From Nitrospirota bacterium (GTDB taxonomy: Bacteria > Nitrospirota > UBA9217), in the NCBI GenBank assembly GCA_963790205.1, contig CAWBNQ010000001.1, forward strand, positions 224,001 to 288,000: a DNA stretch of 64,000 bases, written 5' to 3'. The notes below the pieces were generated by a model. The model made no database searches. It was not told the origin of the DNA and saw only the letters and a list, made by a program, of their open reading frames with translations. The position numbers and the translations under genes are program-made. Below, in pieces: positions 1 through 9,120 of this stretch. Numbering within the stretch: the stretch's first letter is position 1; every line of letters starts with the position of its first letter.

Positions 1-1049
1 AATTTGTCTACTGCCAGCTCTCCATCTTCGAACTTTGCCCGAATAGAATCGATGTTATTGAAATGATTGGTTCTGAATTCTTCCCAAATCTCTTTCGAGC
101 TAAAAAAACTCCCTCTTTTACTTGTTTGACCTATATACCTATAATCCTTTGAGTCGCCGCTACCCATTATCCCTTCGTCGTCATCATTTTTTTTGGCCTT
201 GTTGTAGATTGCTCGTATGTAATCGAAATAGATGAGTTTTAGGTCGTTAAGATCGCTGTCGTCATAGTTCCACTGGATCATCTTTGATCGCCGGCCTTTG
301 TATCTATCCAGATAGCCATCCAGATCAACAAAGGTACCTTCTGTTTTGTTGAGCCTTGTGTAAATTCCAGAGTTCCCTGTTTTCTCTAAATACTCATTCA
401 TTAATTCCATGATTGATAAATATTCTTTGATAGCTGGCGATTTTTCACCCATCATCTGAGCAATTTCTGCGATTCCTTTTTCGCCAGGATAATATTCGAT
501 TAGATCTTTGCACTTCAAATACTTCTCTATTGGATCATAATCTACTTTTGCGTCTTCACCCATTTGAAACGTGGTCTCAAGCCTCATTATTTCTGGAGGG
601 TTCTCATTCAATTCTTCTTCTAATACAACGCCAAGGAAATATACCGGTTGCTCTTTCTTTTTTTCTGCTACCCTTGATAGCAGCAGCGCTCGCCTATTAC
701 CATCAATTATCACACCATCCTTCGTAACTATGCCATACTTAAGCTGGCCCTGATTCAGCAAACTTTCGAAAGTGTTTTTATTACTTTCTTTGCTTGCCTC
801 CTCAAGGAACTGCTCAATAATTAATTTATCGTCGTTATTCGTTGGGTCAAGTGTCTTGCCCTCTTGCTTCTCATACGATTTGACACGACTTGCAATTCGT
901 CCGTTTAAGGAGTTGTAAATCAGATAGTCAAGATTTATCTCGTAAACCGGCATTTTTTGTCGCTTGCCTTTGTAATAGACTTCCATTGAACCATAGGGTT
1001 CTTTCTTTAGTAACTGGACAAAATAATCTATCCGCTGTGCTTTGTTCAT
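1..1049 (-). CDS. ParB/Sulfiredoxin-like domain protein, 3' end beyond window edge
   Basis: Absent from the ORF track because it has no stop in the window. Hand translation from the ATG at 1049 gives MNKAQRIDYFVQLLKKEPYG...YGIVTKDGVIIDGNRRALLL...LETTFQMGEDAKVDYDPIEKYLK. IIDGNRR matches the ParB/Srx motif. Its start overlaps the MTase stop (ATGA, 1046-1049). Confidence 0.75.
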   Translation of the reverse strand, partial: MNKAQRIDYFVQLLKKEPYGSMEVYYKGKRQKMPVYEINLDYLIYNSLNGRIASRVKSYEKQEGKTLDPTNNDDKLIIEQFLEEASKESNKNTFESLLNQGQLKYGIVTKDGVIIDGNRRALLLSRVAEKKKEQPVYFLGVVLEEELNENPPEIMRLETTFQMGEDAKVDYDPIEKYLKCKDLIEYYPGEKGIAEIAQMMGEKSPAIKEYLSIMELMNEYLEKTGNSGIYTRLNKTEGTFVDLDGYLDRYKGRRSKMIQWNYDDSDLNDLKLIYFDYIRAIYNKAKKNDDDEGIMGSGDSKDYRYIGQTSKRGSFFSSKEIWEEFRTNHFNNIDSIRAKFEDGELAVDK

Positions 1050-3474: not shown

Positions 3475-3807
3475 TCAAACTCTCCTGAGCCTATAAACTT
3501 GACCCTTTTCGACATGAAGTTGGGTATGATCTCCTTTTTTGATCCCAACTTCTTCCAGCGCATCAACCAGCCTAGCCTTTGTCCTGCCGTTTGCGGCCTT
3601 CCACAGCACTGATGATATCCAGACCTGACCGTGCTTGTTCTCATGGACACCTGATTCGTAACGAGTACTTCCTATTATGATATAGATAGTCTTCTTTTCC
3701 CTATATCTATGCGGCAGCTCACCGGCACTAGCCTTGGCGATAGAAATCTCGCATATATCTTTATTATCGGCATAAAAGCCTTGCCTTGTTATGCTGCCGC
3801 TTATCAC
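3475..3807 (-). CDS. Hypothetical protein (110 aa)
   Basis: Co-oriented ORF filling the space between neighbours; no recognised motif. Confidence 0.5.
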   Translation of the reverse strand: MISGSITRQGFYADNKDICEISIAKASAGELPHRYREKKTIYIIIGSTRYESGVHENKHGQVWISSVLWKAANGRTKARLVDALEEVGIKKGDHTQLHVEKGQVYRLRRV

Positions 3808-4783: not shown

Positions 4784-5110
4784 CTACGCCGCCGCCTTGT
4801 GCGCTTCCACGCGGAGCTTTACGCGCTCGTTCGTCTGCAGGATCTTGATGATCTCCAGGATATTGTCCGCCCGGGGATTCCCGCGCGGCCCCAGCATGCG
4901 ATGCACGCTCTTGTCCGTCTTCTTGAGCTTCTTCGCGAGCTGCTGGAACGTGATGGTCGCGTTGATGTAGTCGCGCAGCATGGCCTTGCCTGCGTCAAGA
5001 TCGCCGGCGAGCAGTTCGTTCACGGCTTCGGTCAGCATTTGCCTTCTGAATGCCGGATCATTTAATGCTCGGTCCATAATGGTTGTTCTGAATTTACGCG
5101 TTACGGGCAT
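4784..5110 (-). CDS. Addiction-module antidote-type HTH protein (orphan antitoxin)
   Basis: DPAFRRQMLTEAVNELLAGD...LRDYINATITFQQLA...KSVHRMLGPRGNPRADN, typical of this HTH family. Confidence 0.75.
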   Translation of the reverse strand: MPVTRKFRTTIMDRALNDPAFRRQMLTEAVNELLAGDLDAGKAMLRDYINATITFQQLAKKLKKTDKSVHRMLGPRGNPRADNILEIIKILQTNERVKLRVEAHKAAA

Positions 5111-5264: not shown

Positions 5265-5297
5265 AAGCCATTGGGGTCACGAAGCCATTGGGGTCAC
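5265..5297. repeat. Tandem 16-bp direct repeat AAGCCATTGGGGTCAC x2 (REP-like; IS110 target site)
   Basis: Exact copies at 5265-5280 and 5282-5297; related TTGGGGGTCAG at 5147-5157. Confidence 0.85.
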
Positions 5298-5399
5298 CCA
5301 TTTAAAGGACACTGTCAATGGGAAAAACTATCTTGTGCCGAGAAACGGAACGTTTCTCGGCGAGCCTTTTCGTCATCGTCACCCTTACCTTTGCCGCAG

Positions 5400-5685
5400 T
5401 TTCTTTAGGTTTCGGCGTCAGTTCTTGACTGCACCAGTCACCCATCAGGATTAAGGTCATCGGGAACGCTTGATCCGTGACCCTTTCCCGCATCGCGGGA
5501 CCAGAAAATCTTCGGCTCCTTGCCGCGTCCAATTGATTTTTCACGTCTCGTGGCTCTAAGCCAACCCGGTTAAGGCTCGCGGCACGGGCAGTAAAGACGC
5601 TGATAACGATATAAAAGGGTGGGACGGATTACCAATCACTTCTCATGGTTTTGCCAACCCTAATTCTGGTTCACCGTCCCAGCCA
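5400..5685 (-). ncRNA. Putative bridge RNA/seekRNA of the IS110 element (boundaries approximate)
   Basis: Stem 5621-5627/5674-5680 encloses segments matching both halves of the target site; a second structured region (about 5430-5515) contains segments matching both halves of the donor junction. Confidence 0.75.
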
Positions 5686-5689
5686 GCCT

Positions 5690-6709
5690 TCATCCAAAGC
5701 ACTTCTCAGGCATGAATGATACCCCGTCCCGCATGATGTAATAGGCCGCTCTCGCCAGCTTGTGCGCGAGGGCGTTATGCGCCACCATCCTATTTGTTTT
5801 CTGCGACTTGCGGTTGAAATATGCCCGTGCGGCCTCATCTTCGCGACGTGCAATCTCAGCAGCCTCGGAGAAGGCCCATGCTAGATACTTATTGCCGCAC
5901 TTCTTGTTTCCTTTGCCCTTCTTTTTCTCGTTGCTGATCCACTTTGTCGATACCTTCCGGCAATAGGATGCGAAGTTGCCGACCTGAGCAAAGCGGCTGA
6001 CCGGGCCGGTCTCCAGCATGATAGTAAGACCCAGGATCTTGCCGATTCCTGGAATGGTACGAAGTCCTCCGTATCCTTCCCGGAGATCCATTTTCTTTGC
6101 GAGAACACGCTCGACGGTTTTGATCTGGCGCGTCAGAAAGTCTATGGAATCCTTGCTCACCTGGCCGGCCAACGCCAGGTCTTCGTTGTGTTCGAGAAAA
6201 GGGGCAACGCGATTCGTTCGTAACGCTTTCACATCGTTCACCTTGAGCTTGATCCCGTTATTGCGCGTGACGATGTTCTGGAGTCCTAATATCAGTGAGG
6301 TCCGTACTCTCACCAGATGCGCCCTCTTCCGAAGGAGATCACGGACAGGTCGGTCCTCCTTCGGATAGATATATCCTTCCAGCAGAATTCCCAGGCGAAG
6401 CATCTCGGCCAGCCAGAAAGCGTCGTCCTGATCATCGGAGTACTTGAGCCCGGTGTACTTTTGAATCTCCGCAGGATTGGCTAAATGAACAGGATAGCCT
6501 TCCTCCATGAGTAAGTCCACGAGCCAGTACCAGTTGAATGTGGACTCGACGACAATACCGACGATCTGCTTCTTGTACAGTTTCAGGGTAGCGAGAATGA
6601 CCTCGGGATCATTCGCCAACTTCTTTTTGAATACTCGTTTGCCGTTCTCTTCCTTGATGCCTACATACGTGTTGCTTGAATGCAGATCTAAACCAACGTA
6701 TAATCTCAT
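5690..6709 (-). CDS. IS110-family DEDD recombinase/transposase
   Basis: YVGLDLHS, VVESTFNWYW, KYSDDQDDAFWLA (DEDD), TIPGIG, GNKYLAWAFSEAA, ALAHKLARAAY. Confidence 0.96.
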   Translation of the reverse strand: MRLYVGLDLHSSNTYVGIKEENGKRVFKKKLANDPEVILATLKLYKKQIVGIVVESTFNWYWLVDLLMEEGYPVHLANPAEIQKYTGLKYSDDQDDAFWLAEMLRLGILLEGYIYPKEDRPVRDLLRKRAHLVRVRTSLILGLQNIVTRNNGIKLKVNDVKALRTNRVAPFLEHNEDLALAGQVSKDSIDFLTRQIKTVERVLAKKMDLREGYGGLRTIPGIGKILGLTIMLETGPVSRFAQVGNFASYCRKVSTKWISNEKKKGKGNKKCGNKYLAWAFSEAAEIARREDEAARAYFNRKSQKTNRMVAHNALAHKLARAAYYIMRDGVSFMPEKCFG

Positions 6710-6846
6710 TAAGCACCTCCTGGGTTAAGATTGGCGTCTTTCCCATGAGCATATCAGAGTCAAACTGATTCTGGTATGCTCGGAGGTGCCCTTTATATGA
6801 TTATCACTTCTTTAAACAGGCTATGAAAAAAATTCGGCAGCCCCGG

Positions 6847-6918: not shown

Positions 6919-9120
6919 TCAGATCAATAATAATCCCTTTTCCCGCAGTGTTTTCCATTCATGGGATTTCAGAAAAGATTCAAACGAAGATGAAAAGTGC
7001 TTCTCATAATCCTGTTTCAATTCTTCAAGCAGCATTAATTCCTGATTCTGAACGAAAAATCTTTCAAATATGCCGTTCAACCAGTCGCCGATTTCAGCGT
7101 TGGTGATCAAGGTAAACCTCTCACTTTTAGTATAAAAAACAAACCTGCTCTTTCCCGCCTGTTTTCCGGTCTTCGCCGAATTCTCATGAGTGTTTTGAGG
7201 CCGGTTCTCTATCCAGAGGATCCTGGATCTCAACCGTTCTTTGTCGGAAACAGGCTTCTCATTGATCGCTTGTTCCACGTAATTTCTTTTTATGGAAATT
7301 GCCGAAACCTGAAAGTCGAACCATTCGTGAACTGAAAGATCCGTACCGATACCGTGCATGAAGTTGTAAACCGCCTTATTCAAACCCTGGGCAAAACGCT
7401 GATACTCGCAGCCGGCAAGATCTTCGTGCACGAGGTCATTTTTGGCAAAACCGCCCGCAGGACGATCAAGTATCCTGCAGTTATATTTTTCCGGATTTCT
7501 TCCTACATCGCTGTGAACGGTAGCGGTGAACACATGCCAAAAAGCTGATTGTATGAGTCCCTGTTGAAAGAACTGACGCACGACCTCCAGGGCATCGACG
7601 GTTTCTTGTTCGGTTTGCGTCGGAAACCCATACATCAGATACGCATGCACCAGGATGCCTGCACTGCTGAAGTTGCGGCATGCTTGGGCGGCCTGACGAA
7701 CGGTCACCCCTTTATTCATCAGCTTTAAAAGCCTGTCCGAGGCCGCCTCCAGGCCACCGGTCGCGGCAATGCAGCCTGATGAAGCCAACAGCCTGCACAG
7801 GTCTTCGGTAAAAGCCTGTTCAAAGCGGATATTCGCCCACCAGGAAATGCTGATCTTTCTTCTCAGTAATTCCAGCGCCAATTCTCTCAGGGCCGCGGGC
7901 GGCGCGGCCTCATCAACAAAATGAAAACCGGTCTGTCCTGTCTGGGCGATCACCTGCTCGATCCTGTCAGCCAGCACAGCGGCGGGCGCACCATCGAAGC
8001 GGTTTATATAATCGAGGCTGGTATCGCAGAAGGAACATTGGTGCCAGTAACAGCCATGAGCGATGGTGAGCTTGTTCCAGCGTCCATCGGACCACAGGCG
8101 GTGCATGGGATTGGCAATTTCAACGAGAGAAAGATAGTTATCCAAGGGGAGGTCCGAATAATCCGGGCAGCCGACCTCCGCATGGGAAAAATCTTTTTCC
8201 GTGTCGTCATTCCAATATTTCACGCTATTTGCCACCCTGATAAAGGTCCTTTTAAGCCTGCCCGGATTTTTTTCTTCCCGGAGGAATTTTAAAATATTCA
8301 AAAAAGGACGTTCTCCGTCGTCCAGGGTAATAAAATCAACGTAGTTAAAGACGGCAGGGTCCGAAAGCTCTCGAAGTTCGGTATTAATAAATCCGCCGCC
8401 TGCAATAATTTTAACGTTCTGATGGTTCTTCTTGATATAGTGAGCGCATTTTAACGCCGCATAGACATTGCCGGGAAAGGGAACGGTAACCCCCACAACA
8501 TCCGGGCGATAGTGTTCGACATGTTTTTTCAGTAAAGCCAGTAACGAGGTTTCAATGATATTTTCGGGTTGATGCAAGGCCTGGTCGAGCAAAGAGAAAG
8601 AACGAGCGGACATTCCGAGCTTTTCAGCATAACGGCTGAAACCGAAATAGGGGGTCACCGCATCTTTTATCAGATCGCCGATATCTTCAATATATCGCGT
8701 TGCCAGGAACCGGGCTTTATCGTTCACCCCGATGTTCCCGAACGACCAATCCAGGTCGGGCAATTGATCGAACCGGGAAGCCCTCGGTAAAAAATGATCG
8801 GAGCAGAGGAGTTGGGCAAGGGTATTGTCCCGGTACTGCAAAAAATTCATTACCTGGTCCACGGTTTGCAAATAGTATTGTTCATTGTTCAGGATGTGAA
8901 TTGAATTTTGGGAAATTTGCCCGGCATTCTTTTTCACAGCATCGAACAGCATTTCAAAGCCTTCGCGAGAAAAAATCCTATTGATCAATTCAATGCCTAA
9001 ATCGACCTGAAATACATCATACCCGCGCATTTTCAGAAAGCCTTTCAAATAAGGCGATGCCGGATAGGGGGTATTAAGCTGGGTAAAAGGCGGAGTGATG
9101 AGAAGTATTTTATCAGGCAT
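6919..9120 (-). CDS. B12-binding radical SAM protein
   Basis: HGCYWHQCSFCD CxxxCxxC motif; N-terminal PPFTQLNTPYPA; cobalamin-binding-like region; HFVDEAAPP. Confidence 0.9.
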   Translation of the reverse strand: MPDKILLITPPFTQLNTPYPASPYLKGFLKMRGYDVFQVDLGIELINRIFSREGFEMLFDAVKKNAGQISQNSIHILNNEQYYLQTVDQVMNFLQYRDNTLAQLLCSDHFLPRASRFDQLPDLDWSFGNIGVNDKARFLATRYIEDIGDLIKDAVTPYFGFSRYAEKLGMSARSFSLLDQALHQPENIIETSLLALLKKHVEHYRPDVVGVTVPFPGNVYAALKCAHYIKKNHQNVKIIAGGGFINTELRELSDPAVFNYVDFITLDDGERPFLNILKFLREEKNPGRLKRTFIRVANSVKYWNDDTEKDFSHAEVGCPDYSDLPLDNYLSLVEIANPMHRLWSDGRWNKLTIAHGCYWHQCSFCDTSLDYINRFDGAPAAVLADRIEQVIAQTGQTGFHFVDEAAPPAALRELALELLRRKISISWWANIRFEQAFTEDLCRLLASSGCIAATGGLEAASDRLLKLMNKGVTVRQAAQACRNFSSAGILVHAYLMYGFPTQTEQETVDALEVVRQFFQQGLIQSAFWHVFTATVHSDVGRNPEKYNCRILDRPAGGFAKNDLVHEDLAGCEYQRFAQGLNKAVYNFMHGIGTDLSVHEWFDFQVSAISIKRNYVEQAINEKPVSDKERLRSRILWIENRPQNTHENSAKTGKQAGKSRFVFYTKSERFTLITNAEIGDWLNGIFERFFVQNQELMLLEELKQDYEKHFSSSFESFLKSHEWKTLREKGLLLI

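Follow-up and report, generated by a model that had tools for sequence, protein, structure and literature searches.

Does the long non-coding tail downstream of an IS110-type recombinase gene encode an RNA that guides the recombinase, and if so, which DNA does this RNA read? The gene lies in a 64,000-nucleotide stretch of a Nitrospirota bacterium genome (contig CAWBNQ010000001.1, positions 224,001 to 288,000), which was analysed as a whole and is referred to here as the window; the features described below are on its minus strand and are read in that direction. RNA-guided IS110/IS1111 recombinases are under development for inserting large DNA without double-strand breaks, and mechanistic work has mostly been done on IS621 of the IS110 group. 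A sequence-only reading of the window had proposed an intact, RNA-guided IS110 recombinase with a GTGA core and, in the tail of its gene, a bispecific RNA with one region for the target and one for the donor. Our results make it highly probable that the conserved three-loop fold of the tail, with its segments matching the insertion site and the element's own ends, belongs to an RNA that guides the DEDD recombinase, directing the circular element to AGAAG-TG-ACCC sites.

The element is an insertion sequence of 1510 bp (5295-6804, one copy of the TG core being counted at its right end), and its ends were set by a second copy, L002, and by 25 full-length relatives. Upstream of it are the left target half AAAGAAG (6813-6807) and the left copy of the TG core (6806-6805), which together span 6805-6813. 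The left end (6710-6804) comprises 95 nt and is kept in relatives; it contains the right donor half ATAATCAT (6804-6797) and the sub-terminal inverted repeat TAAAGGGCAC (6795-6786). The right end (5295-5318) contains a -35 hexamer TTGACA (5318-5313), the inverted repeat GTGTCCTTTA (5312-5303), the left donor half AAATGGG (5303-5297) and a TG core (5296-5295). It is followed by the right target half ACCCCAAT (5294-5287), which lies inside a tandem 17-nt duplication (5265-5297). On the minus strand the left junction reads AAAGAA-GTGA-TAATCAT (6813-6797) and the right junction AAATGG-GTGA-CCCCAAT (5303-5287). The 10-bp inverted repeats inside the two ends (6795-6786 and 5312-5303) agree in 9/10 bases and are conserved in relatives; sub-terminal inverted repeats of 7-17 bp are a criterion of the IS1111 group. 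Together with the short 95-nt left end before the recombinase gene and the long non-coding region of 395 nt after it, this inverted repeat indicates the IS1111-group layout, as described in the accessible text of Durrant 2024 (PMC11208160) and Siddiquee 2024 (PMC11187229).

The second copy was found by a search of the window's own genome. It covers window positions 6814-5291 with three differences over the 1514 bases compared, and the encoded proteins are identical. The stretch common to both copies runs from TAAAGAAGTGA to GGG(C)GACCC, and the flanks diverge outside TAAAGAAG (left) and ACCC (right), so that the site of L002, TAAAGAAG-(C/T)G-ACCC, is similar to that of the window copy. The shared extent of the two copies therefore fixes the ends of the element independently and places both copies in similar sites. 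Three public runs also have contigs with copies 95-99% identical to the element. The similarity to the window breaks off at 5287, 5289 or 5291 at one end and at 6811 or 6812 at the other, where unrelated DNA begins, and these copies represent additional insertions into sites of this type. All four left flanks available, from the window, from L002 and from contigs of the runs X1 and X2, have AGAAG-TG in common. Insertion is site- and orientation-specific, with AGAAG-TG-ACCC at both genome copies and at the public-contig junctions, and only TG is repeated. The window element is an intact insertion sequence, as had been proposed, of the RNA-guided IS110/IS1111 family, IS1111 group; its ends, its near-identical second copy and its protein family are observed directly.

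The surroundings of the element contain several repeats. The 17-nt tandem duplication opens the right flank, with GTGACCCCAATGGCTT at 5297-5282 and again at 5280-5265, followed by C in the first case and T in the second, that is, GTGACCCCAATGGCTT(C) then GTGACCCCAATGGCTT(T). In a whole-genome scan the right-flank 13-mer occurred only in these two tandem copies, and no perfect match to the 13-mer empty site AAAGAAGYGACCC was found in the genome when T or C was allowed at the first core base. The target was also considered as a possible genomic repeat, an idea rejected because the nine one-mismatch matches to the empty site are no more than the 13 of a reversed control. Among relatives, the first eight flank bases recur within 40 nt at 6/58 distinct right junctions, compared with 68/3000 random positions, and in L024, L015, L027 and L075 the last 14-22 bases of the element itself are repeated beside the right junction. 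Such right-flank repeats could have been left by recombination at false TG sites. In L015 (1409-1729) a further, partial tail, beginning at a TG within loop 2 (described below), comes after a complete right end; it has the appearance of a nested insertion or of recombination at an internal false site, TG-CC. Between 12 and 27 kb beyond the window (G000:C1:300569-314649, loci L003-L007) lies a cluster of degenerate fragments from related elements (70-85% identity), comprising one body that is split, a left end by itself and two right ends by themselves. The neighbours of the window element, both on the minus strand, are a 733-aa ORF ending at 6919 (6919-9120) and a 108-aa ORF starting at 5110 (4784-5110).

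The recombinase gene (5690-6709) encodes 339 aa. Its product has an N-terminal PF01548 domain (DEDD_Tnp_IS110, RuvC-like DEDD; E 9e-16) and a C-terminal PF02371 domain (Transposase_20; E 5e-14), and reaches 176.6 bits with the NCBIfam model NF033542 ('IS110 family RNA-guided transposase'), above the cut-off of 140. The IS621 recombinase (PDB 8wt6), aligned by HMMER, is a remote match (E 7e-11, C-terminal half). In this alignment D8, E55, D93 and D96 are opposite acidic residues of IS621 and are candidates for the DEDD residues, while S259 is opposite the catalytic serine of IS621 and is the serine candidate. The surroundings of S259, KVSTKWISN, read WISN and are without the G, the P or the SG of the published family motif around the conserved serine, G--P----S(t)G, that is, SG or TG, as given in the available text of Siddiquee 2024 (PMC11187229).

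The GTGA core that had been proposed from the window copy was not borne out. Across relatives the conserved left end starts with TG-ATAATCAT and the conserved right end closes with AAATGG(G/A)-TG, and both the base before TG at the left junction and the base after TG at the right junction vary with the flank. Since the bases next to TG vary in this way, the repeated core is the dinucleotide TG, and the shared G and A around it in the window copy belong to the target and simply coincide with the bases of the donor. The right junction of L002 reads GCGA (L002:3017-3022, compare window 5296) as opposed to GTGA at its left junction, and CG is also found at the right junction in L008, L057 and L072, where the left junction or the guide reads TG. 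This suggests that a C at the first core position of the target is tolerated, and we infer that the mismatch segregates to one junction after strand exchange.

Four segments of the tail had been described as matching the half-sites, and on recheck all their positions, sequences and match counts were correct. The segment AGAAGTGA at 5643-5636 equals the left target half at 6811-6804 (8/8), ATTAGGGT at 5664-5657 matches the reverse complement of the right target half ATTGGGGT (7/8), ATGGGTGA at 5445-5438 equals the left donor half at 5301-5294 (8/8) and AAGATTTTC at 5512-5504 matches ATGATTATC of the right donor half (7/9). TGG follows within one base of all four, again as described, and TGG motifs are seen as parts of helices in the scaffold of loop 1. 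Two other matches to ATGGGTGA in the window (445-452 and 556-563) were set aside, as they are without an element module nearby. For each exact 8-mer, chance predicts about 1.65 occurrences in the 64-kb window (both strands) and about 0.005 in the 392-nt tail (one strand). The best 12-mer match in the tail, when compared with shuffles, is not above chance for the left target (reached by 1386/2000 shuffles), the right target (1996/2000) or the left donor (1355/2000). The raw guide matches alone are therefore suggestive; they stand above chance because they are placed in a conserved scaffold and covary with the flanks of relatives.

The relatives used here are 79 loci with 43-87% recombinase identity, from a scan of one genome per species, and their hosts are mostly Nitrospirota and Desulfobacterota metagenome-assembled genomes. 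Twenty-five distinct full-length elements were cut out and their tails aligned, in which three modules were seen and profiled (nhmmer). Numbered from the stop codon onwards, loop 1 was detected in 58 of the 79 loci, loop 2 in 61 and loop 3 in 68, and 52 loci have all three. The two-loop RNA proposed earlier is thus incomplete, as it missed the third conserved guide-like loop at 5518-5596, our loop 2.

Loop 1 (5617-5688), the equivalent of a seekRNA, was delimited by nhmmer, scaffold pairing and covariation. Its scaffold consists of an outer stem, in which GGGACGG (5680-5674) pairs with CCGTCCC (5627-5621), a 3-bp ACC/GGU helix and an inner UGG/CCA hairpin. The scaffold pairs in 98.2% of cells in 26 sequences, compared with 33-54% when the partner columns are slid, and three pairs are altered on both sides (15 cells). 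The guides are the two variable strands between these helices. The 3' strand comprises the left target guide AGAAG (5643-5639), the core UG (5638-5637) and a further AU (5636-5635), that is, left flank, TG and AU, while the 5' strand, with the right target guide at 5664-5657, is the reverse complement of the right flank. The right-half guide, a top-strand match, is thus 5' of the left-half guide and directly after the stop codon. The covariation of guides and sites in homologues, which had been named as a check on the guide RNA, is found in loop 1. The left guide matches its own flank at a mean of 5.17/8 positions, as opposed to 3.17 in mismatched pairings (16 guide families), and the right guide at a mean of 5.87, as opposed to 4.11 (25 families); 0/5000 permutations reach either value, although permutation statistics here and below are inflated by the relatedness of the sequences. 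Relatives with recombinases 70-77% identical have other guides and correspondingly other insertion sites, and loop 1 guides match in retargeted relatives with the sites GTAGAAA-TG-TCCTATT, GTATTC-TG-CATAGAA and GTAACT-TG-ACACGTGAAC. As judged from these sequence comparisons, loop 1 is the target loop, and the joint change of guide and site among relatives amounts to natural reprogramming. In L055, L056 and L057 (about 3535-3700) there are two tandem loop 1-type modules, both with UG-AU-UGG and with differing guides, in addition to loops 2 and 3.

Loop 3 (5424-5519) was found to have the features of a donor-binding loop. Its 3' strand reads AUGGG-UG-AC, comprising the left donor guide ATGGG (5445-5441), the core UG (5440-5439) and AC (5438-5437), and AUGGG-UG equals the right end of the element. 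The support for the left donor guide is mostly conservation, together with a single compensated change, from G to A, found in the L013 group; at this G/A position the guide is mismatched in three guide sets (L045, L053 and L024). The two bases after the core are the first two target bases in 34/40 distinct guide sets (0/10000 permutations), and these span five dinucleotide classes, AC, TC, CA, TA and CC. Loop 1 has the mirror image of this arrangement, since the AU after its UG is the first two bases of the left end (donor AT). We refer to these two-base segments as handshake bases. A candidate right donor guide, AAGAUUUUC in the RNA (AAGATTTTC at 5512-5504), lies between ACC and UGG, in the same place as the right target guide of loop 1. 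It is conserved in all relatives with slight variation and matches the donor at 7/9 positions, and because the donor end is invariant its covariation is uninformative. An alternative right donor guide, ATATCGTTATCA (5612-5601), was rejected, as it lies in a predicted long-range stem and is missing from distant relatives that keep the same donor end; its 10/12 match to the reverse complement of the core and left end, reached by 25/2000 shuffles, is read as chance or as a clade-specific feature. The sequence comparisons thus support loop 3 as the donor loop and make AAGAUUUUC a plausible right donor guide. In the bispecific RNA that had been proposed, the target guides stand by their covariation with the sites, and the left donor guide tracks the element end and the handshake bases the target, while the right donor guide is no more than plausible.

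An alternative is that loop 1 alone guides the recombinase, the ends being recognised by the protein via the sub-terminal inverted repeats, and that loops 2 and 3 are a precursor or a regulatory or processing domain. For ISEc11 an 82-nt target loop is reported to suffice on its own for transposition, and this seekRNA to move a mini-element better than the long form does; the available text of this report states that the role of the long form is unknown and, for the IS1111 group as a whole, that the role of the longer RNA and the recognition of the ends are open (Siddiquee 2024, PMC11187229). A donor loop may accordingly be dispensable in the group, and the donor ends and the matching bases of loop 3 are here nearly invariant, which deprives covariation of its force. 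However, the agreement of the loop 3 handshake with the target in 34 of 40 guide sets and five classes is difficult to account for if loop 3 does not come into contact with target DNA at the crossover. Moreover, loop 3 is the most widely detected of the modules (68/79 loci), and donor-binding bases are predicted in a multi-loop for many IS1111 elements, according to the text available to us of Durrant 2024 (PMC11208160). We therefore regard guidance by loop 1 alone as unlikely and retain loop 3 as a donor loop.

Loop 2 (5518-5596) has a scaffold like that of loop 1, with an R segment TTAACCGGGT (5573-5564), an L segment CGAGACG (5550-5544) and a UG (5543-5542). The loop is kept across a whole clade of IS1111-type elements with 44 to 100% recombinase identity. 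Its scaffold pairs in 94.3% of cells in 31 sequences, compared with 29-44% in slid controls, eight pairs are altered on both sides, and the loop 2 profile gives weak matches at loop 1 positions. Both strands show some likeness to the flanks: the left strand has a mean of 4.28/8 matches (control 3.57; reached in 97/5000 permutations) and the right strand a mean of 4.55 (control 3.91; 2/5000). In the consensus fold, loops 2 and 3 are inside one shared long-range stem, in agreement with the remark of Durrant 2024, in the portion accessible to us, on donor-binding bases of IS1111 elements in a multi-loop. By eye, the longer 3' strand of loop 2 loosely resembles the left end. As a reader specific for excision, loop 2 was rejected, since by eye the two bases after its UG fit neither the first two of the target nor those of the donor.

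One could propose on this basis that loop 2 is the operative target loop, or an equal alternative, that loops 2 and 3 form a self-contained bispecific RNA and that loop 1 is a spare. The shared stem and the well-supported scaffold are compatible with this, as are the resemblance of the loop 2 guides to the target in many families and the alteration of the right strand together with loop 1 in the L013, L017 and L024 groups. The fit to the site nevertheless favours loop 1, which is better in 23 of 27 insertions and equal in two, loop 2 being better in the remaining two, and loop 2 covaries less than loop 1 on both strands. In the L035/L029/L031 group loop 1 and the sites are altered but loop 2 is constant, and loop 2 misfits the site in this group, in L069 and in an ISGsu4-family element. 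All four left flanks of the window element type read AGAAG, as in loop 1, and not AGACG, as in loop 2, which is also without the tight core-AU-UGG arrangement of loop 1. That loop 2 is the operative loop is consequently very improbable. With loop 1 as the target loop, loop 2 may still be a working second reader of target DNA, in elements with two target loops and one donor loop; we put this forward tentatively, as a possibility to which we give somewhat less than even weight. In a limited literature, available to us as text without its figures, we found no published description of a second target or target-like loop in IS110/IS1111 RNAs.

That the matches arose by chance, or that the tail encodes a small protein and not an RNA, is scarcely credible: the best 12-mer matches do not exceed shuffles for three of the four half-sites and an 80-aa ORF (5302-5544, minus strand) was listed mechanically, but the guides covary with the flanks, the stems show compensatory changes and relatives differ here by indels of 1, 2 and 4 bases that preserve no reading frame, for which reason the ORF was rejected.

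The tail also contains a conserved hairpin (5337-5361), GCCGAGAAACG-TTC-CGTTTCTCGGC, with a T-run 10 nt later (5326-5322), which is a possible 3' end of the RNA; a simple terminator scan did not call this hairpin. When the ends of the element are joined, TTGACA (5318-5313) is brought to a 17-nt spacer from GATAAT (the core G and 6804-6800). The arrangement is predicted to act as a junction promoter, such as has been reported for ISEc11. The flank of the integrated copy offers the -10 hexamer nothing but weak -35 matches. No Rfam family matched the region, even at E values up to 10. In the contigs of four of 24 public runs, one true RNA library contained the element, with a single 236-nt contig (5894-6129) inside the gene and none over the tail, and this is uninformative on expression.

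Homology with IS621 and ISEc11 suggests how such an element could move. The element would probably excise as a circle, and the joined ends would create the TTGACA-17-GATAAT promoter, which would drive the gene and the RNA downstream from it; no such junction turned up in the data. In loop 1, pairing would be between the 3' segment, AGAAG-UG, and the bottom strand of the left target half, and between the 5' segment, AUUAGGGU, and the right target half's top strand. Loop 3 would read the circle junction likewise, via AUGGG-UG and probably AAGAUUUUC, and strand exchange would take place at the TG dinucleotide. The two bases after UG, AU in loop 1 (equal to the donor right half) and AC in loop 3 (equal to the target right half), would then pair with the partner DNA after exchange, which is the role of the handshake bases in IS621.

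Much of this organisation is shared with known IS1111 elements, as far as these are described in the accessible text of Siddiquee 2024 (PMC11187229). In the IS1111 seekRNAs, as in loop 1, the guide loop is directly after the stop codon and the match to the top strand lies 5' of that to the bottom strand, and natural retargeting is seen among relatives. ISEc11, ISPa11, ISKpn4 and ISPst6 similarly have a long downstream non-coding region, sub-terminal inverted repeats and a junction promoter formed by the joined ends, and the recombinase of ISEc11 has a reported size of 339 aa, the same as that of the window element. By eye, the non-coding regions of these four elements, in the sequence that the source provides, each contain a match to the right end, after which come the published target's first two bases, comparable to loop 3, but these two bases could be core and not handshake. 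Their DNA sequences are unrelated to that of the window element, with no ISEc11-like motif in common. Moreover, no obvious second target-like loop was seen by eye in the ISEc11 non-coding region, as given in the same text, in contrast to the three-loop layout in 52/79 loci here. The earlier assignment to IS110 holds for the IS110/IS1111 family and not for IS110 proper, as the downstream RNA and the right-guide-first order place the element in the IS1111 group.

The likeness to IS621, as described in the available parts of Durrant 2024 (PMC11208160) and Hiraizumi 2024 (PMC11208158) and in structure 8wt6, includes two loops in which the left guide reads the bottom strand and the right guide the top strand, a dinucleotide core, a DEDD and serine recombinase, and handshake guides of two bases, matching the partner DNA, at the 3' end of the 3' guide. 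The window element differs from IS621 in that its RNA is downstream of the gene and the order of its guides is reversed. Its handshake bases come after the left guides, whereas those of IS621 come after the right guides, and this mirrored position fits the reversed guide order of IS1111 RNAs. Its core is TG and that of IS621, in the same sources, is CT. It also has longer inverted repeats and one extra loop, and the protein match is remote. The closest named relative that we found is the ISGsu4-family element mentioned above (annotation name; plasmid AP028202.1), whose protein is 48% identical. The two elements share the end motifs, TG-AAAATCAT... and ...GCTAATGGG-TG, and by eye the three-loop layout. 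The right target guide of the ISGsu4-family element matches the flank at 9/9 positions, and both its handshakes fit, as AA of the end equals AA in loop 1 and TC of the target equals UC in loop 3. It differs in having other guides and another target, in a loop 2 that is unlike its flanks and in that loop 3 alone was detected by the profiles.

The window element is a clean further example of a known RNA-guided system, to which one guide-like loop is added. To its host genome it is an ordinary insertion sequence, probably recently active, in an intergenic spot. For the family, the element and its relatives provide a natural collection of about 25 variants of the right guide and 16 of the left, each paired with a site of its own, and sequence evidence that a donor loop with handshake bases would operate in an IS1111-type clade too. 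If loop 2 is truly a second reader of the target, it could provide a back-up or an older address, or could help in reading the flanks during excision.
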